DNA from: Escherichia phage vB_EcoM_Kelasse
DNA: 64,000 nt
Sequence record: MW749001.1
Strand: one strand, 5' to 3'
Each line of letters begins with the position of its first letter. Position 1 is the stretch's first letter. The translations under genes and the position numbers were made by a program. Below the pieces are notes generated by a model. The model had not been told where the DNA came from. It worked only from the letters and a program-made list of their open reading frames with translations, and searched no databases. This document shows positions 51,459 to 60,938 of this stretch, piece by piece.

Positions 51459-53516
51459 CTACATTTTGAACTTTTTAGACATTCCGTTGATGTTAACCAA
51501 AGAAGCCAAGATTTGAGAAACTTCGTTTTCCTCTTCTTTTGATTCTTCTACAAGGAATTGATTAAATCCAGCCATTGGACGAACTTCACCAGTTTCCATT
51601 AGATGGTCGCCATCATATACCGATTCCTCTAATTGTTCAGAAGGAGGAACGATTGTACCTTCTATTAGATACTTGTTATAAGCAGTTTCTTTCATAAAGT
51701 ACGTGCTCACTTTATTAATCTTCAGTAAAATTCCACGCGGTAGAATAACTTCAGCTTCTGATGGAAATCCTGATAAATGACCTGGAACGATAACTTTGAT
51801 TCGCTCAGCTCCTTTAATTACCATACCCACGCTAGTTTCAGCATCTTCATTAGCATATGTAGAATGACTACCCATATGCATCAAATCTTCTGCATCAACG
51901 GAACCTTCTCCTTCGCCAGAAAATACTGCGCCGGAATCATCTAGAGCCATATAGTTTTTACCATGCTCACCGAAGATATTTGGTTTAAGCGATGTGGATA
52001 CGAAGTTCTTGAAATAGAACATTTTATTTTCAATGTTATGACGCAAAGTTTTAAAGGTAACTTCTTGTCCACGGTAAAGTGTAGTTCCTGGAGGAAGAAC
52101 TGAACCTTTAGCGAATGCAGAATCAAGCGTCTCAATATGTTTAATAGCTCGTTCCATATATTCTTCACGGGTAGAATCTGGTTTACCCAAAAGGAACGAG
52201 TTCATTTCAACATATGAATCTGCACAATAATCTTCAATTACATCAGACTCAGCCTGAGTTAATCCTTTTGGAGTTACTTCAGTACTTGCATATTCATATG
52301 CCTGAGCGGCAGATTCATTAATCAATTTATAAATGCCATTCATGACAAATTGAATAATAGCTGTCTTTTCATCTGGTGTAGCTTTAGAACCTTTAACTAA
52401 ATCATTGATAATTTTCTTAATAACATCAAAGCTATTAGAAATATTAATGTCAGCAAGATCGCTTAAAATTTTATCAGTTTTATAATCAAAGAATTCTTTA
52501 TTCTTTAAATATTCTTGAGAACCTTGATATGTTATATCGCTCTGCAGCTTGATAGATGGATCGCGTAAACGTGCATGGGCCAATGCAATATGATTTCGGA
52601 AGTTTTCTAGTTCATAATCGTTAGATTTAAAACGAGAAGCACTTCTCATACCACCGATAGCTCCTTTGCTAAAGTTTGAACCAATCTGAATAACGCCAGA
52701 GTTCATCGGACCTTCTGCTTTATATACCGGAACTTTAGATTCAAACTCTTGATATTTCTTAGCAGCGAAGCTATCACCCTGAAGTGAAGCATCAACAGTA
52801 GAATATTGAGCTTGTGCTGCTAATCGACGACTAATTTTAGTTTTCTGAATAACAGCTTGATCCGTGCGCTTATCATTTTCTAAAGCAATAGAAGCAGCAA
52901 CAGCGACAGCTTTAGGAACAGCATTACCTGTTTTAACGTCTACATAAACATCACCAACCTTTGATTCAACTTTTGTGAATAACTCAGTTGAAATAGGAGG
53001 TACACCTGGAATGTCTTCTAAATTGGCATTTTTACGGTAAACCATAATATATGCATATTTCTTATCATAGTCCCAGATTTCCTTTAAAAGAACATATCGA
53101 CCTGCTCCTTTAGTACGTACTAAACGGTCAGCAATAACTTGCATTTGACGAGCTGCGCCATTTGTTTTACTCTTTAGTACGCGGAATAAGCATGCATCAA
53201 TTTTATACTGTTTCATTGTTTGAAGAGCAGTATCAAAAACAGCATTAATGACGCCAATTGGATTTCCACCCAAGTTTTTAAGCTTAACTAATGATAGTTT
53301 CTCATTAACACCTATCATTACGATATGCATCATTTTGTCGCCTGGCTTAACGTTTTTATTCGTATCACCGCCAGAGGTGTATGTACAAAATCTAAATCCA
53401 GGAAGCACGCTTTCTTCACCGGCTTGAATAGCAAAAATTTGTGGTATTTTATGCTTAGGATTTAAGTTAACAACCGGCGCCGAAGCGCCGTCAAATAATT
53501 CTGTAATAAGTTCCAT
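51459..53516 (-). CDS. Alt-like ADP-ribosyltransferase paralog (685 aa)
   Basis: N-terminus MELITELFDG...FCTYTSGGDTN parallels the adjacent alt gene; C-terminal R-S-E triad elements (LYRGQ, FVSTSL, SEAEVILPRG). Confidence 0.75.
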   Translation of the reverse strand: MELITELFDGASAPVVNLNPKHKIPQIFAIQAGEESVLPGFRFCTYTSGGDTNKNVKPGDKMMHIVMIGVNEKLSLVKLKNLGGNPIGVINAVFDTALQTMKQYKIDACLFRVLKSKTNGAARQMQVIADRLVRTKGAGRYVLLKEIWDYDKKYAYIMVYRKNANLEDIPGVPPISTELFTKVESKVGDVYVDVKTGNAVPKAVAVAASIALENDKRTDQAVIQKTKISRRLAAQAQYSTVDASLQGDSFAAKKYQEFESKVPVYKAEGPMNSGVIQIGSNFSKGAIGGMRSASRFKSNDYELENFRNHIALAHARLRDPSIKLQSDITYQGSQEYLKNKEFFDYKTDKILSDLADINISNSFDVIKKIINDLVKGSKATPDEKTAIIQFVMNGIYKLINESAAQAYEYASTEVTPKGLTQAESDVIEDYCADSYVEMNSFLLGKPDSTREEYMERAIKHIETLDSAFAKGSVLPPGTTLYRGQEVTFKTLRHNIENKMFYFKNFVSTSLKPNIFGEHGKNYMALDDSGAVFSGEGEGSVDAEDLMHMGSHSTYANEDAETSVGMVIKGAERIKVIVPGHLSGFPSEAEVILPRGILLKINKVSTYFMKETAYNKYLIEGTIVPPSEQLEESVYDGDHLMETGEVRPMAGFNQFLVEESKEEENEVSQILASLVNINGMSKKFKM

Positions 53517-53519
53517 GAT

Positions 53520-55616
53520 TTATCCTTGAACGAACTTGTAAGGCATGTTTGTAATATCTATGCAAGACGCAATAATTCCAAGAGATGATTCTACTTTCTG
53601 TTTAACGTTTGATGAAACAAATGATGCAAAGTCAACTCTGTCTTCTATTTCAATATCACCTGTCATTGCAACCAATTCACCAGTTTCCATTAAATGGTCT
53701 CCATCATAGATTACCGATTCGGTGAGCTCTTCCGTAGTCATAACTTCAGCTTGAATGAGTTTTGTATTATTAGATGTTGTTCCGTCATTATTAGAAGCAT
53801 CAGTTATTTTATTAACTTTGACCATCAATCCACGCGGTAGAATAACTTCAGCTTCTGTTGCTATTCCGAGACTTCCTGGATATACAACATTAACTTTATG
53901 AGCTCCATCAATTGCCCATCCTATTTGAACTTTAACGTATTCAGGATTTTCTTTATACGCTCTTATTTCGTTTGGATTAATAGTTATTCCTTCTTCATTT
54001 TTATCAACTGTTAATTCATTGCGAGCTTCTGGTTCTAAAAGACCAATACCAGCATGTGTAATTCCAAAACGTCCAAAAATGATAGGAGTTAAAGAAGTAG
54101 ATACAAAATTTCTGAAGTAGAACACTTTATTTTTAACTAACGCTTCATATATAGGAGCAGTCATACTTTGAGCACGATAAACTGTAATGCCTTCTGGTAT
54201 ACGGTCACCATTTTCAAAAGCTGAATCTAAGTTATTTATAGCAGATTCAATTTCTTTTTCACTCATTACATCATATCGTTCTGGATTGTAACGACCTAAA
54301 AGAAGATTATTGATGTCAGTATATCCTGAACCGCAATATTCTCTAATGCCACGCTTTTGTGATGGAGTATATTTAGAACCATCGCGGGCAATAGTAATAT
54401 CAATCATTGGACCAGCACCAATTCCAGAAAAACTGTAAATCATTCGTTTGAGGAATTTAGTTTTTGCTGCGTTCCAGGAATTTTTAGTTATTTCTTCCCA
54501 GACTTCATCTGGTTGTCCTTTACGATTTTTATTATGATTAGCAAGCCATTTATCTTTATAATCTTCAAAGAATTGATTTATAGCTGCTGCGTATTTCTCT
54601 AAACATTTTATTGAAGTAGTTGGTTCATTTTTAATTGCATTAAAAATTACTTCTTTAATTTTTTCTGAAACTTCACCGACTTGACTCATTGGAAAGAATT
54701 TATAATCATAGTGAAGTTCATCTGCCGTTCCTTCAGCAATAATTTTTGCTGCCTTTGTTTTAGAAGCTAATGAATTAATTCCAATTTTCATTTCTTCTGC
54801 TTCGGGAATTAAAGGTGCAGTAGCTGGTTTATTAAAATTAGCTGCTGTAGATTCATACTTCTGGAATAATTCACTTTCAAATCTAGAAGATTCCAATGAC
54901 TGGCTTTGTGCAATTGCTCTACGGGAAATTTTAACTTTAACGATTACAGCTTGGTCAGAACGTTTATCATTTTCTTGCGCAATAGATGCTGCAATTGCTT
55001 CATTTTTGGTTACTTGAGCTCCAGTATCTTTATTAATATAAACATCACCGACCTTCGATTCAACCTTAGTAAAGAGCTCGGTACTAATTTCCGGAACCCC
55101 TGGAATGTCTTCTAGTGATACATTTTTGCGATGTATAAGAATATATGCATACTTTTTATCATAATCCCAGAGTTCCTTAAGAAGGACGTATCTGCCACCT
55201 GAACGACTACGGATAAGTCTATCAGCAATAACTTGAATTTGTCGAGCTTGGCCAGCAGTTTTAGACTTAAGAATACGAAGCATACAAGCATCAATTTTAT
55301 ATTGACGCATTGTTTGCATTGCAACAGTAAAAACTGAATTGATATAATTAATTGGGCTTGGACCAAGACCTTTTAATTTAGCAATTGAACCTTTAGCAGT
55401 TAATGTAAAAGGAACAATATGCATCATTTTGTCGCCCATTTTTAAATCACGATTAGTATCACCTCCAGATGTATAGGTACATAAACGAAAGCCTGGTTGT
55501 TCAATTGCATCATCAACATGAACTGAAAAAATTTGTGGTATTTTCTTCTTTGGATTTAAGTTTGTAATCGGAAGAGTAGTATCTTCGTCAAATAATTCTG
55601 TAATGAGTTCCATCAT
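53520..55616 (-). CDS. alt: Alt ADP-ribosyltransferase (head-packaged, modifies host RNA polymerase)
   Basis: 698 aa, N-terminus MMELITELFDEDTTLPITNL; C-terminal R-S-E triad elements (VYRAQ, FVSTSL, TEAEVILPRG); late promoter upstream. Confidence 0.8.
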   Translation of the reverse strand: MMELITELFDEDTTLPITNLNPKKKIPQIFSVHVDDAIEQPGFRLCTYTSGGDTNRDLKMGDKMMHIVPFTLTAKGSIAKLKGLGPSPINYINSVFTVAMQTMRQYKIDACMLRILKSKTAGQARQIQVIADRLIRSRSGGRYVLLKELWDYDKKYAYILIHRKNVSLEDIPGVPEISTELFTKVESKVGDVYINKDTGAQVTKNEAIAASIAQENDKRSDQAVIVKVKISRRAIAQSQSLESSRFESELFQKYESTAANFNKPATAPLIPEAEEMKIGINSLASKTKAAKIIAEGTADELHYDYKFFPMSQVGEVSEKIKEVIFNAIKNEPTTSIKCLEKYAAAINQFFEDYKDKWLANHNKNRKGQPDEVWEEITKNSWNAAKTKFLKRMIYSFSGIGAGPMIDITIARDGSKYTPSQKRGIREYCGSGYTDINNLLLGRYNPERYDVMSEKEIESAINNLDSAFENGDRIPEGITVYRAQSMTAPIYEALVKNKVFYFRNFVSTSLTPIIFGRFGITHAGIGLLEPEARNELTVDKNEEGITINPNEIRAYKENPEYVKVQIGWAIDGAHKVNVVYPGSLGIATEAEVILPRGLMVKVNKITDASNNDGTTSNNTKLIQAEVMTTEELTESVIYDGDHLMETGELVAMTGDIEIEDRVDFASFVSSNVKQKVESSLGIIASCIDITNMPYKFVQG

Positions 55617-55636: not shown

Positions 55637-55666
55637 TATTTATAAAATTAAAGGCCCGAAGGCCTT
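55637..55666 (-). promoter_or_regulatory. Late promoter TATAAATA for alt, preceded by a terminator hairpin
   Basis: Minus-strand TATAAATA (plus 55637-55644) about 21 nt upstream of the alt ATG; hairpin AAAGGCC-CGAA-GGCCTTT at 55649-55666. Confidence 0.6.
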
Positions 55667-55854
55667 TAATAATCTATTGGTAAGAGAGTACGATATATTT
55701 CAAACTTTGGACCTTTTTCATAGGCATCAAATGTTTCTGTGAATTTATTATAAGCATATGCATCTATAAATTCAATCATGATTTGTGATACAGAAGTAGA
55801 AACATCTCCACCTTCTTTTTGAGCCACGACAATTGTTTCTAAGTAAGCTTTCAT
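55666..55854 (-). CDS. Hypothetical protein (62 aa), alt.1-like position
   Basis: Complete ORF between ligase and alt. Confidence 0.45.
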   Translation of the reverse strand: MKAYLETIVVAQKEGGDVSTSVSQIMIEFIDAYAYNKFTETFDAYEKGPKFEIYRTLLPIDY

Positions 55855-57314
55855 AAACCAGTTACCTCATGAAAATCGCCAAATACATCTTCGAACGTAT
55901 TAGCTTTAGTTTTATCTTCACGTAAACGAATCGCAATCGGAAGAAATAATTTAACGTAATCAGTGCGACCATCAGATTTTAACCAACCGTTGCATTCGCA
56001 CTCTAGAATTTTTCCAATATAATAATTTTGATTTTCCATAATGCGAGTACGATCAAGTTCATGCGATTTTACACCGGCTTTATCTTTTAAGCCTGAACCA
56101 GCATTTACTTTAATTTTTCCACACTCTGATTCAAGAACGAAACCACCTGCTTTAGTAGGGTCTTTACGGTGAGGATAAATTCCTACAATTTTTAAATCAA
56201 CATCAATTACTTCTTTAAATTTATAGAGATTTTTTGAACGAGCATTTTCCCATAATCCATCGATATTTTTGAGAATAATACCTTCAAGACCTTGGTCAAT
56301 ATACTTTTTGTAAATTACCTTAGCTTCATCTAGGTTATTTACTACTTGGTTTTCAATTAAAATTACTTTATCATAGCCTGATGTCATTTGTTCTAGTTTA
56401 GAAAAACGTACATCATATTTTAAACGAAATGCTGGAAGACCATATATTTCTACTAATGGAACATAGTCCCAGACCTGAAACTTCATGCATTGTGCTTCTT
56501 TTTCAGAAATGGTTCCCTTTAAAGATTTATTGGCGATGCCATTAGATGCAGTACGTGATTCAGCTACTTCGGCGAATTCTTTAGCTTTACTAATTTCAGG
56601 ATAAGCATCAAAAAGAAAATCTAGGCCTTCTGGTTCCTTTTCAACTTGCTCATGGTATACCAATTCGCCATCAATTAACACACCTTCTGGATGAATCTGG
56701 CGGGCTTCAGCAGTCATTTTGATTAACTCTTCCTTAAGAAGATCTAATCCTAGATATTCATTGCCAGCTCGTGATAAAAGACGAACATCATCTAATTCAT
56801 CACCTCTGACTTCGGCAAAGCACCGAGCTCCATCAGCTTTTAATTGGGCAAAGGCTGGAAATTTGATATTCTTATTAATGCCTTTTTCATCATAAGAACT
56901 TGCCAGCATTTGAGGTTGTTCAGGAATTAAACCTGGCCAAACTTTATTTGCAATAGATACTGATGCACCGCATTCAAGGTCTCGCATCATCACCCGACGC
57001 AAAACTTCAACATCATCTTTTTTACCATCGGTGATGTATCCAGTTAATTCCTCAATCGCCGCATTTCCAGTCAATTTCCGAGTAGCTAACGTGAATTCAA
57101 TGAAGTCAAGCATATCGGTAAGAGTCAACATTCCAAAACTCTGGGTAGCAATACCAGGTTTAGGCCATTTCTTGATATAATACTGTAACCCACGAGAATA
57201 AGTCAGACGATATACTCGTTTAAGCAATTCATTATCTTTATTCTTTTCAAGAATTGCTTGCTTCTGCTTAGTTGAACCAATAGATGCTATTTCGTTCAGA
57301 ATTTTAAGAATCAT
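55851..57314 (-). CDS. 30: gp30 ATP-dependent DNA ligase
   Basis: 487 aa with adenylation motif KADGAR. Confidence 0.9.
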   Translation of the reverse strand: MILKILNEIASIGSTKQKQAILEKNKDNELLKRVYRLTYSRGLQYYIKKWPKPGIATQSFGMLTLTDMLDFIEFTLATRKLTGNAAIEELTGYITDGKKDDVEVLRRVMMRDLECGASVSIANKVWPGLIPEQPQMLASSYDEKGINKNIKFPAFAQLKADGARCFAEVRGDELDDVRLLSRAGNEYLGLDLLKEELIKMTAEARQIHPEGVLIDGELVYHEQVEKEPEGLDFLFDAYPEISKAKEFAEVAESRTASNGIANKSLKGTISEKEAQCMKFQVWDYVPLVEIYGLPAFRLKYDVRFSKLEQMTSGYDKVILIENQVVNNLDEAKVIYKKYIDQGLEGIILKNIDGLWENARSKNLYKFKEVIDVDLKIVGIYPHRKDPTKAGGFVLESECGKIKVNAGSGLKDKAGVKSHELDRTRIMENQNYYIGKILECECNGWLKSDGRTDYVKLFLPIAIRLREDKTKANTFEDVFGDFHEVTGL

Positions 57315-57580
57315 TGTTCATCCTTTAGAGTTTGGTTTACAGCTCTATTATAAATCAATTCATCATTAAGCTCAGTCAAAGACCTGTGGTACGTTGTTCT
57401 AACTTTATTTCCTTGCATCCAGTGCTTGACGTAAATGAAACCTTGCTCTACACATTTTTTAAAAATTCGTTCGTCTTTTTGAGCTCGGAATTCTGGATTG
57501 CATCTAAAAAATTGATTTACGTGACCGTAATCACGTGTAGTATTACCTTCATTTTCATAAATAGTGTGAACGACAAACAT
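57311..57580 (-). CDS. Hypothetical protein (89 aa), 30.1-like
   Basis: Complete ORF overlapping the ligase start. Confidence 0.5.
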   Translation of the reverse strand: MFVVHTIYENEGNTTRDYGHVNQFFRCNPEFRAQKDERIFKKCVEQGFIYVKHWMQGNKVRTTYHRSLTELNDELIYNRAVNQTLKDEQ

Positions 57581-58419
57581 TAGAATGCTCCTTGGAAAAT
57601 ATTATCACCACTAGTAGGTCTATTATACAAATACTCTATGCCACCAGGTTTAATATAGTTCCATGTCTGAAACGGATGTGTCTGATATGGATGATATAGA
57701 TGATTATAAGGATTAAATCCAGGAGTTCTCCAGGTAGTGTTCCAAGGAAAAGAATCGTTTTTGATCATCTTCTCAATTACATCTTTTATAAATTTTTCAC
57801 TATCAAAACTTTCTTTATTTTCCTTCGATGGAAAAAGCTTATTCTCTACATCATTCCATGTATAAACTCGCTGTGCAGTTTTTGGAATACTGTCACGCTC
57901 TCCTCGAGCCATCCAATAAACTGGAACATTTAATATTTCACTCGCATGATCGCAGTGGTGAGCGAGATCGTCAATATAACAAATTACGTTATATTTCTCT
58001 TTTGCCTTTTTGAACAACTCTTCTTTTGAAGAATCATGACCACACATCAATATTTCTGAGAAGGCACCAGGAAAAAGAGCATTCAAATTAAATTGACGAT
58101 TCAGCAAAGCATCAATAGAATCACCCAATGCTGTAACAGCTACAAAATTATAATCTTCTTTTAATTTGTTAATTACACACAGGGCATCTTTATATGGAGA
58201 CAAGTAACGAATAAAATCTGAACGATTGTATTTTTCAATTAACTTGACGCCAAGTTCTTCATCACAATTAAAGAGTTTACCAGGAGAAATAAATTTCTCA
58301 TCTTGGATCATTTTTAAAATATGTTCTAACGGAAGATTATATTTCTGAGCAAAATAAGGAAGGCCTGATTGCCAGCTTAAACATACTCCATCAATATCAG
58401 TCAAAATAGTAGGCTTCAT
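57580..58419 (-). CDS. HAD-superfamily hydrolase-like protein (279 aa), 30.2-like
   Basis: N-terminal DIDGV (HAD motif I) and a later YIDD motif; substrate cannot be inferred. Confidence 0.55.
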   Translation of the reverse strand: MKPTILTDIDGVCLSWQSGLPYFAQKYNLPLEHILKMIQDEKFISPGKLFNCDEELGVKLIEKYNRSDFIRYLSPYKDALCVINKLKEDYNFVAVTALGDSIDALLNRQFNLNALFPGAFSEILMCGHDSSKEELFKKAKEKYNVICYIDDLAHHCDHASEILNVPVYWMARGERDSIPKTAQRVYTWNDVENKLFPSKENKESFDSEKFIKDVIEKMIKNDSFPWNTTWRTPGFNPYNHLYHPYQTHPFQTWNYIKPGGIEYLYNRPTSGDNIFQGAF

Positions 58420-58880
58420 AGAGAGTCTCTTAATAGGTTTAACACATCAATAAATTCAGCTTCGGTTAGTATTGTATCATCTTTTGTTAGACCACTAGCC
58501 ATGCTGTGCTTCAAAACTTTTCCTTTTGAGGCTTGTAAGGCATCACGAAACCCCTTGTTTTGAATCGCTGCTTCAAAATATGCATTTGTATACAACTCTT
58601 TCCACGCTGGGGAGTATCTTGAAAATGGAACTCCCAGCCAGAAGAGGGTCCCACGGTCCTGAGCTCTTGCATAAGACCTTCCAGCTTGTTGGGCGGCAAG
58701 CCCGGATAACCCAAATATACGACGTTGTTGTTCAACATTTTTCACCTTGCACCCTTGGAGGAATCCTTCAAGACCTCCAAATTGAATACCATCCATAACG
58801 AAAGGCCATTTGGCGAAATTACTTAATGCACATGATGGCCACCTAAAATTGCTTCTAATCTCTAACTCAGACATTTTCAA
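58416..58880 (-). CDS. NADAR / YbiA-family (DUF1768-like) protein (154 aa), 30.3-like
   Basis: Motif LSNFAKWPFVMDGIQFGGLEGFLQGCK matches the conserved SNFA-WP core of YbiA/NADAR proteins. Confidence 0.6.
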   Translation of the reverse strand: MKMSELEIRSNFRWPSCALSNFAKWPFVMDGIQFGGLEGFLQGCKVKNVEQQRRIFGLSGLAAQQAGRSYARAQDRGTLFWLGVPFSRYSPAWKELYTNAYFEAAIQNKGFRDALQASKGKVLKHSMASGLTKDDTILTEAEFIDVLNLLRDSL

Positions 58881-59073
58881 TGCTTATAATTTCAACATCA
58901 GCCCAATGACCATAGCAAGGAAGACGAAATTCAACTGGCCAGTTAGGGTCCTTTTCTAATATAATAGACTTAACTTGTGGTTCTTCATGTTCATCTGTAT
59001 ACGGATTTTTATCTGTTACTTTATATGTGACCTTAATGTACTGAATTCCAAAAATCTTATTAATTATATTCAT
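58867..59073 (-). CDS. Hypothetical protein (68 aa)
   Basis: Complete ORF in the 30.x small-gene cluster. Confidence 0.45.
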   Translation of the reverse strand: MNIINKIFGIQYIKVTYKVTDKNPYTDEHEEPQVKSIILEKDPNWPVEFRLPCYGHWADVEIISIENV

Positions 59074-59267
59074 ACTAATTCCTTTAATCCATAGATAGGA
59101 GATAATTCATCACCCATACGAAGGTCTTCATTTCCATCTACCCAGGAAACAATATAAGCATCTTTTACTTGAACATCTCCCAATTTAAATGCAGGTAAAA
59201 CCTTAGAAATTAATCCAGGTATACCAACTCCCTTTAATTCAACAGTTTGACCTAAAAAGAATTTCAT
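59070..59267 (-). CDS. Hypothetical protein (65 aa)
   Basis: Complete ORF in the 30.x small-gene cluster. Confidence 0.45.
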   Translation of the reverse strand: MKFFLGQTVELKGVGIPGLISKVLPAFKLGDVQVKDAYIVSWVDGNEDLRMGDELSPIYGLKELV

Positions 59268-60389: not shown

Positions 60390-60419
60390 ATACTATCACA
60401 AAGGAGCTATACTGTAAAC
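60390..60419 (-). promoter_or_regulatory. Early promoter GTTTAC-N18-TAGTAT
   Basis: Minus strand GTTTAC (plus 60414-60419), 18-nt spacer, TAGTAT (plus 60390-60395); same architecture as the promoters at 2928-2957 and 3228-3257. Confidence 0.5.
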
Positions 60420-60440: not shown

Positions 60441-60468
60441 AATAAAAAAGGACTCCCGAAGGAGTCCT
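60441..60468 (-). terminator. Rho-independent terminator after the small basic gene
   Basis: Minus strand AGGACTCC-TTCG-GGAGTCCT followed by TTTTTTATTTT. Confidence 0.65.
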
Positions 60469-60472
60469 CAAC

Positions 60473-60649
60473 TTATGCTTTCTGCTTACCAAAACGAGAA
60501 GCATCATCTCGAAGAACCGCACGTGCTCGGCGCATGATCTTCTCAACAGTTTGATTGATACGAGAGTTCGACCCACGCTTGTAGCCAGCGCGTTTAGAAT
60601 CACCAACTTTCTTTTCAACTGCTTTCTTTGCTTTAACCTGTTTTGCCAT
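60473..60649 (-). CDS. Small highly basic protein (about 58 aa), 30.9-like
   Basis: ORF extends to 60691, but the ATG giving MAKQVKAKKAVEKK is the likelier start; Lys/Arg-rich. Confidence 0.5.
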   Translation of the reverse strand: MAKQVKAKKAVEKKVGDSKRAGYKRGSNSRINQTVEKIMRRARAVLRDDASRFGKQKA

Positions 60650-60938
60650 TATAAATTCTCTTTTAAATGAAAATGCAGGACTTATTGGCATTGCCTGCGC
60701 AAGCCCTCAAGGGGAACATAGGTTTTTGGATATTTAACGACCAGGATAACCATAAACCCGTCATCATACCACCAAGACTTACACAGATAACACTTTTCTG
60801 ACGCATGATAGTAACATTCAAGAGGTACACCATAAAACTGCCGGGGTCTTAAAACTATAATGATTCGCAAATCATTAATCAGACAGTTCGATGGCTCCTC
60901 GATTTTAGCTCACACTAAGGCAGTGAATCTCCAATAAA

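Follow-up and report, generated by a model that had tools for sequence, protein, structure and literature searches.

The window analysed here is the whole stretch of 64,000 nucleotides (nt) of Escherichia phage vB_EcoM_Kelasse (record MW749001.1), and all coordinates are window positions. The phage is a T4-like Tequatrovirus. Its minus strand was found to contain genes 30.4, 30.3, 30.2, 30.1, and 30 (DNA ligase) in the order of transcription, with rIII and gene 31 farther along from 30.4; the gene order of the locus was the same as in the T4 annotation. In our study, we examined two of these genes. Gene 30.3 very probably encodes AdfN, a NADAR protein that counters the DarTG1 defence, and gene 30.2 encodes a separate predicted HAD phosphatase outside the anti-DarT mechanism. 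Over the region 57000–59200, identity was 100% to the Escherichia phages vB_EcoM-101117BS1 and FriedrichZschokke, which is Bas41 in the BASEL collection, and 97–98% to T6 and the RB phages.

Both open reading frames (ORFs) reported in the initial annotation of this DNA were present on the minus strand, as follows.

58416-58880, minus strand, gene 30.3 ORF from a mechanical TTG start at 58880, 154 amino acids (aa)
58416-58874, minus strand, gene 30.3 (adfN) from its ATG start, 152 aa
57580-58419, minus strand, gene 30.2, 279 aa

The initial annotation had placed the two genes immediately downstream of the ligase. This was true in plus-strand coordinates only; in the direction of transcription, the pair is located upstream of the ligase gene, from which 30.2 is separated by 30.1. 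The genes of the string were found to overlap by 8 nt at the 30.4/30.3 junction, by ATGA at the 30.3/30.2 and 30.1/30 junctions, and by TAATG at the 30.2/30.1 junction.

Gene 30.3 and its NADAR features

The ORF of 154 aa was real, whereas its start was wrong. The true start is the ATG at 58874, because T4 annotates 459 nt for this gene and the published E36/K43 numbering fits only that ATG. The protein of 152 aa (gp30.3) was identical to T4 gp30.3 at 150 of its residues, and the two differences, Q22K and I125M, were both found at non-conserved positions. The full length of gp30.3 matched the Pfam model PF08010 (Phage_30_3), scoring 234 bits where the cut-off is 36 (E=5.6e-70). The Pfam NADAR model PF08719 gave no match to gp30.3 at E<=1. 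One homolog (P0083) had precomputed matches to both PF08010 and PF08719; the missing PF08719 match reflects a limitation of the sequence model and no defining biochemical feature.

The SNFA-WP core, on which the NADAR assignment had been based, was recovered in the alignment of the LSNFAKWPF segment of gp30.3 with FSNFAAWPI of E. coli YbiA. Multiple sequence alignment of 90 gp30.3 homologs has shown that S18, N19, F20, E36, Q40, and H123 are invariant and that at least 90% of the homologs keep K43. The profile of the family alignment found YbiA in the PDB (E=0.0059), spanning the SNF and E..Q..K motifs. The AlphaFold2 model, built on the alignment of the 90 homologs, reached a mean predicted local distance difference test (pLDDT) score of 92.9 and contained the YbiA/NADAR fold, with core helices flanked by small sheets. 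The conserved catalytic residues, the fold model, and the YbiA profile match agreed on the NADAR family; the predicted structure lay inside the NADAR fold and the conserved residues were retained. The positions of the NADAR features are given below.

58815-58823, minus strand, SNF motif, codons of S18-N19-F20 as read from the sequence; invariant in the 90 homologs and aligned with the SNF of YbiA
58746-58769, minus strand, catalytic E...Q..K segment E36-G-F-L-Q-G-C-K43; aligned with EHYFQAQK of YbiA
58767-58769, minus strand, E36 codon
58746-58748, minus strand, K43 codon
58506-58508, minus strand, H123 codon; a His where other NADARs have Glu/Asp, at the end of the last strand (model strand 120-122), present in 90 of 90 homologs
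58419-58463, minus strand, C-terminal helix of AdfN, about aa 138-152 (model helix 138-151); sequence identical to T4 there

This Glu/Asp-to-His replacement in the last strand defines the gp30.3 subfamily (PMC11125620).

T4 is also annotated with a gene 30.3', an out-of-frame ORF of 75 aa inside adfN, whose equivalent in the window is found at 58511-58738 on the minus strand. As a coding ORF it was rejected, since it gave no coding sign. The synonymous diversity of adfN was 0.230 inside and 0.232 outside the overlap with 30.3', the start codon of 30.3' was missing from 9 of 15 distinct sequences, and its protein sequence diverged much faster than that of AdfN. An open stretch as long as 30.3' appeared in 268 of 2000 synonymous shuffles (13%).

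AdfN, DarTG1, and the ADP-ribosyltransferases of the phage

The function of gene 30.3 is already established in the literature (2024–2025), and nothing new is reported here for this gene. In vitro, T4 gp30.3 hydrolyses guanosine-ADP-ribose and not thymidine-ADP-ribose (Cihlova et al., Toxins 2024, PMC11125620). The DarTG1 resistance of T-even phages was mapped to gene 30.3, which was renamed adfN (Johannesman et al., Nat Commun 2025, PMC11825919). The same study reported that deletion of adfN rendered T4 and T2 sensitive to DarTG1, and that RB69, whose own allele is frameshifted and has lost the last 15 residues together with its function, was rescued by ectopic adfN. The substitutions E36A and K43A and the RB69-type truncation each impaired T4 AdfN, and purified AdfN stripped ADP-ribose off DNA (PMC11825919). 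Phages Bas35–Bas47 were all resistant to DarTG1 (PMC11825919), and this set includes Bas41, whose locus is identical to that of the window. A preprint on transposon sequencing (Tn-seq) of T4 (10.1101/2025.11.20.689424), the source of all Tn-seq values given here, found 30.3 to be dispensable on K-12 and lost on DarTG1 hosts. Insertions were carried by 27 of the 28 TA sites of adfN on K-12, and the log2 fold change (log2FC) was +0.12 in M9 and -7.25 on DarTG1 (adjusted p 0).

The counter-DarT role suggested in the initial annotation thus holds for the T4 ortholog, where it is carried by hydrolysis, by deletion/complementation genetics, and by Tn-seq. The window protein has the same length as T4 AdfN, the same flanking genes, and the same E36, K43, H123, and C-terminal helix; the helix is full-length, unlike that of the RB69-type allele. 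For practical purposes, window AdfN and T4 AdfN are the same protein. Because E36, K43, H123, and the complete C-terminal helix are present, the window gene is taken to encode a functional AdfN, a predicted guanine-DNA ADP-ribosylglycohydrolase, and we infer its activity and DarTG1 phenotype from the T4 ortholog. In a host carrying DarTG1, the DarT1 toxin would ADP-ribosylate the guanines of the phage DNA during infection and replication would be blocked. AdfN, acting as a stand-alone NADAR enzyme, would cleave the bond between ADP-ribose and guanine in the DNA and clear the adducts, so that replication could continue.

A few points weigh against this reading. The window allele departs from T4 AdfN at Q22K and I125M, and its function is read from the T4 protein. 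AdfN(T4) gives uninfected E. coli no protection from DarT1 (PMC11125620, PMC11825919) and rescues non-T-even phages weakly (PMC11825919), which indicates that the mechanism has an extra T-even-specific component. Johannesman et al. likewise stated that AdfN(T4) needs a further T-even-encoded factor for full activity (PMC11825919).

Compared with other NADARs, gp30.3 was found to differ in several features. The NADAR antitoxins associated with DarG1/DarT1 (e.g., that of Geobacter lovleyi, PDB 8bat) contain an N-terminal extension, which is absent from gp30.3, and an Asp at the catalytic position of the last strand, where gp30.3 has His (PMC11125620). The window gp30.3 has no adjacent DarT toxin, and DarG1 is not replaceable by gp30.3 in uninfected cells (PMC11125620, PMC11825919). 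E. coli YbiA (PDB 2b3w) and the Phytophthora NADAR (PDB 8bau) showed about 20% identity to gp30.3; YbiA-type proteins contain a Glu at the position of His123, and gp30.3, unlike them, matches PF08010 and not the NADAR model PF08719. YbiA is linked to the cleavage of riboflavin intermediates and gives no cellular protection against DarT1 (PMC11125620). AdfN(Bas32) and AdfN(Bas60), from T5-like and Vequintavirinae phages, are phage-borne orphan NADARs as well, which reverse the action of DarT1 and are specific for the guanine adduct; they belong to other NADAR clades, were independently acquired and, unlike AdfN(T4), need no phage co-factor (PMC11825919).

The fold and motifs that gp30.3 has in common with YbiA, together with two Alt-like ADP-ribosyltransferases encoded just beyond the ligase, would also suit a housekeeping or self-directed role, in which gp30.3 cleaves riboflavin intermediates in the manner of YbiA or undoes the modifications made by Alt, ModA, and ModB. 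Such a role is extremely improbable. The Alt and Mod enzymes modify proteins, and ModB also modifies RNA, but guanine in DNA is not among their targets. In the T4 Tn-seq, adfN was dispensable on K-12 and in M9, with the values given above, and was essential only with DarTG1 present. The alt gene was neutral under DarTG1 (log2FC -0.01, adjusted p 1.0), and Alt is therefore irrelevant to the DarTG1 defence. The link between gp30.3 and the phage's own Alt enzymes, hinted at in the initial annotation, was thus left without support by the Tn-seq. Moreover, the gp30.3 subfamily has His for the YbiA-type Glu, and in published trees it lies closest to the NADARs associated with DarT (PMC11125620, PMC11825919).

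The two Alt-like genes of the window are full-length and stand in tandem, whereas T4 carries at the equivalent place one alt and a decayed duplicate, alt.-1/alt.-2.

51459-53516, minus strand, first Alt-like gene, 685 aa; only 41% identity to T4 Alt
53520-55616, minus strand, alt, the second Alt-like gene, 698 aa; 71% identity to T4 Alt, with the N-terminal 250 aa nearly identical and the catalytic part diverged

Gene 30.2, a predicted phosphatase beside the ligase

The protein of 279 aa (gp30.2), which starts MKPTILTDIDGV, had been called HAD-like, and this call was correct at the level of fold and motif. The following parts were distinguished.

57835-58419, minus strand, N-terminal core of 30.2, aa 1-195, HAD-superfamily phosphatase domain with a helical C1 cap; HAD motifs I (D8, D10), II (T96), III (K132), and IV (D150-D151)
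57580-57834, minus strand, C-terminal tail of 30.2, aa 196-279 and the stop codon; one helix followed by disorder, rich in Trp/Tyr/Pro/Asn
57613-57645, minus strand, GGIEYLYNRPT motif in the tail, aa 259-269

All four HAD motifs were kept in gp30.2, in the phosphatase (DxD) form. Among 98 gp30.2 homologs, D8, D10, and K132 were invariant and T96, D150, and D151 were conserved in at least 90%; D8, D10, and K132 were still invariant across 77 more distant members, and V12 was conserved in at least 90% in the wider family alignment. The AlphaFold2 model gave a pLDDT above 92 over residues 1–195 and contained a Rossmann-like HAD core with a helical cap inserted after strand 1 (residues ~13–75). 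The family comprised 1261 representative clusters at E<=1e-3.

The tail was less uniform. The pLDDT fell below 60 from about aa 221, and the homologs were found in two forms, one of ~200 aa with the core only and the other with the core followed by a highly variable C-terminal tail. The tails of the homologs spanned 0–149 aa, and a G-I/L-E-Y-L/W-x-x-Q-P-T sequence near the C-terminus recurred in several lineages. The GGIEYLYNRPT-type motif looks like a docking motif, and the disordered tail probably docks onto a partner protein. The nearest short-form homologs, with ~75% identity in the core, had no tail.

A bridging homolog, found by the gp30.2 profile at E=7e-28, scored 37.7 bits over its full length on the Pfam NT5C model (PF06941; cut-off 24.8). 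NT5C was the commonest Pfam model in the family, matching 17 of the 98 close and 19 of the 77 distant members. The NT5C 5'(3')-deoxyribonucleotidases (human cdN, 6g2n; Staphylococcus, 3bwv) share with gp30.2 the DxDGV..[FW].[SG]G sequence after motif I and the terminal DD of motif IV; their identity to gp30.2 was 16–20%, and gp30.2 adds a tail of ~85 aa that is mostly disordered. On these grounds, gp30.2 was read as a predicted Mg-dependent capped HAD phosphomonoesterase, with the NT5C branch as its closest family. We infer that it most likely dephosphorylates a small nucleotide-type substrate.

Against the NT5C placement stands the fact that, whereas the bridging homologs pass the Pfam threshold, the window gp30.2 itself matched no Pfam or NCBIfam model even at E<=1. 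The family profile reached the solved deoxyribonucleotidase PDB 2jao at E=0.077 only. Because the window protein has no Pfam match and the 2jao match is weak, the placement is transitive and the substrate is a guess. Single-sequence searches of gp30.2 and gp30.3 against Pfam, NCBIfam, PHROGs, and PDB sequences returned only family-specific models with no assigned function and noise; gp30.2 falls in phrog_420, which has no assigned function, and no published activity assay of gp30.2 was found in a literature search.

Of 79 viral loci centred on gp30.2, 67 had a ligase gene no more than 700 nt from the gp30.2 homolog, and 30.2 is a syntenic companion of DNA ligase. This proximity would fit a 3'-phosphatase of DNA ends that, comparable to the phosphatase domain of T4 polynucleotide kinase (PNK), readies nicks for the adjacent ligase, and a disordered tail bearing a docking-like motif could anchor such an enzyme to replication or repair proteins. 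A weak match to a PHROG of polynucleotide kinases (phrog_415, E=0.0025) points the same way, and the phosphatase domain of T4 PseT is, like gp30.2, a HAD-type DxD phosphatase. However, the active site is covered in the model by a helical C1 cap. In the classification of HAD enzymes, the C1 cap is typical of small-molecule phosphatases, whereas the phosphatase domains of polynucleotide kinases have no cap. The kinase domain of PseT is absent from gp30.2, and the family links of gp30.2 go to NT5C rather than to PNK. T4 already has PseT, the proximity to the ligase may be mere inherited synteny inside one phage family, and distant homologs have no ligase nearby and adjoin MazG, PhoH, or nuclease genes. 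A role at DNA ends is thus unlikely, and the small-molecule phosphatase of the NT5C branch is preferred.

The surroundings of the distant homologs (MazG, PhoH, nuclease, patatin) were too mixed for the assignment of a pathway. One of these homologs (L154, 5980-7002) lies directly upstream of a gene for a MazG-type nucleotide pyrophosphohydrolase, and large additional domains are fused to a few members of the family, giving proteins of 365–660 aa (P0258, P0303, P0207, P0248). The MazG neighbour or the domain fusions could hint at the substrate class of gp30.2.

The initial annotation had also hinted that the products of 30.3 and 30.2 act together. Because AdfN(T4) needs a T-even-encoded factor, the adjacent gp30.2 is an obvious candidate, and the two proteins could form a two-enzyme module in which the phosphatase processes the released ADP-ribose or potentiates AdfN as the missing factor. 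The genes adjoin with an ATGA overlap in the window phage, and both are near-universal in T4-like phages, with 1451 and 1510 records and matching counts per host genus. Genome-level co-occurrence is, however, uninformative because both genes are near-universal in these phages. The published Tn-seq table is the strongest evidence against the pairing. T4 30.2 was non-essential on K-12 and had no fitness effect in LB, in M9 (log2FC -0.10), or on DarTG1 hosts, where insertions over 71 TA sites gave a log2FC of -0.12 (raw p=0.61, adjusted p 1.0); 30.1 gave -0.01 (adjusted p 1.0). In view of this neutrality, gp30.2 is not a non-redundant partner of AdfN. A point against two separate functions is that Tn-seq reports non-redundant fitness effects only, so that a redundant contribution of 30.2 would escape detection.

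The synteny of the two genes was weak. A gp30.2 homolog was found within 6 kb in only 19 of 80 viral loci centred on gp30.3, and gp30.3 within 6 kb in 31 of 79 loci centred on gp30.2; the pair is not kept in distant relatives. In several complete genomes, and in many genera, of T4-like phages, 30.3 and 30.2 are separated by ~55 kb. In several T4-like genera, the adfN homolog stands ~55 kb from the block of 30.2 and ligase (loci L028, L029, L041, L042, L056, L059, L068, and L080 versus L141, L121, L148, L096, L115, L102, L109, and L114), and its upstream neighbours are unrelated between lineages. From this distant and lineage-varying placement, adfN behaves as a mobile accessory gene, whereas 30.2 stays with the ligase. 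Moreover, ADP-ribose contains no phosphomonoester on which a HAD phosphatase could act. With the Tn-seq and the weak synteny, gp30.2 was rejected as a helper of AdfN, and a two-enzyme module is very unlikely.

Gene 30.4 and the surrounding genes

The other genes around 30.3 and 30.2 are listed below.

58867-59073, minus strand, gene 30.4, 68 aa, no known domain
57311-57580, minus strand, gene 30.1, 89 aa, DUF3045 (Pfam PF11243, E=2.9e-64; T4 annotation)
55851-57314, minus strand, gene 30, ATP-dependent DNA ligase (Pfam PF01068, E=1.6e-32)
55666-55854, minus strand, alt.1

A scan of the region for promoters and terminators found sites no more numerous than in shuffled sequence. A strong terminator-like hairpin with a GC-rich stem of 9 bp followed by a T-run was present at 60448-60469 on the minus strand, directly after an ORF of 72 aa (60473-60691, minus strand). 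A promoter-like site whose -10 element is of the extended type comes next (60390-60418, minus strand). The hairpin and the promoter-like site may mark the start of a transcription unit running from 30.8 to the ligase.

Gene 30.4 was the only significant gene besides 30.3 in the T4 Tn-seq on DarTG1, with a log2FC of -1.79 (adjusted p 0.014), and this result was not discussed in the Tn-seq paper (10.1101/2025.11.20.689424). The window gp30.4 was identical to T4 gp30.4 at 66 of 68 residues. Its depletion on DarTG1, together with its neutrality in M9 (log2FC -0.05), would fit a gp30.4 that is the T-even-specific factor stated to be needed by AdfN(T4) for full activity (PMC11825919). The gene was present with the same 8-nt overlap in 14 of 14 close loci of the T-even type, including those of lowest identity (~86% to the window), and no gp30.4 homolog was found alongside the distant gp30.3 homologs; with gp30.4 in all 14 close loci and in none of the distant ones, the comparative data do not discriminate.

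The same depletion can be explained by the way in which adfN is translated. The adfN start codon is embedded in the final codons of 30.4, and adfN lacks a Shine-Dalgarno-like sequence of its own; the transposon used in the Tn-seq allows transcriptional read-through and bears stop codons in all three frames. Consequently, any insertion in 30.4 should uncouple the translation of adfN, and the partial effect fits a reduced dosage of AdfN. Insertions were well tolerated in 30.1, whose overlap with the essential ligase gene is similar, so that polar effects are not universal; however, the ligase gene is served by a separate AAGGA ribosome-binding site, and this accounts for the tolerance of insertions in 30.1. 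A polar effect on the translation of adfN is the simplest explanation and is likely, whereas a helper role of gp30.4 is unlikely.

For the T4-like phages, gp30.2 is a conserved and near-core predicted enzyme. For the T-even phages, the public Tn-seq table makes 30.4 a candidate for the missing factor of AdfN. If gp30.4 is that factor, the counter-DarT function would lie in a cassette of two genes, 30.4–30.3, specific to T-even phages.

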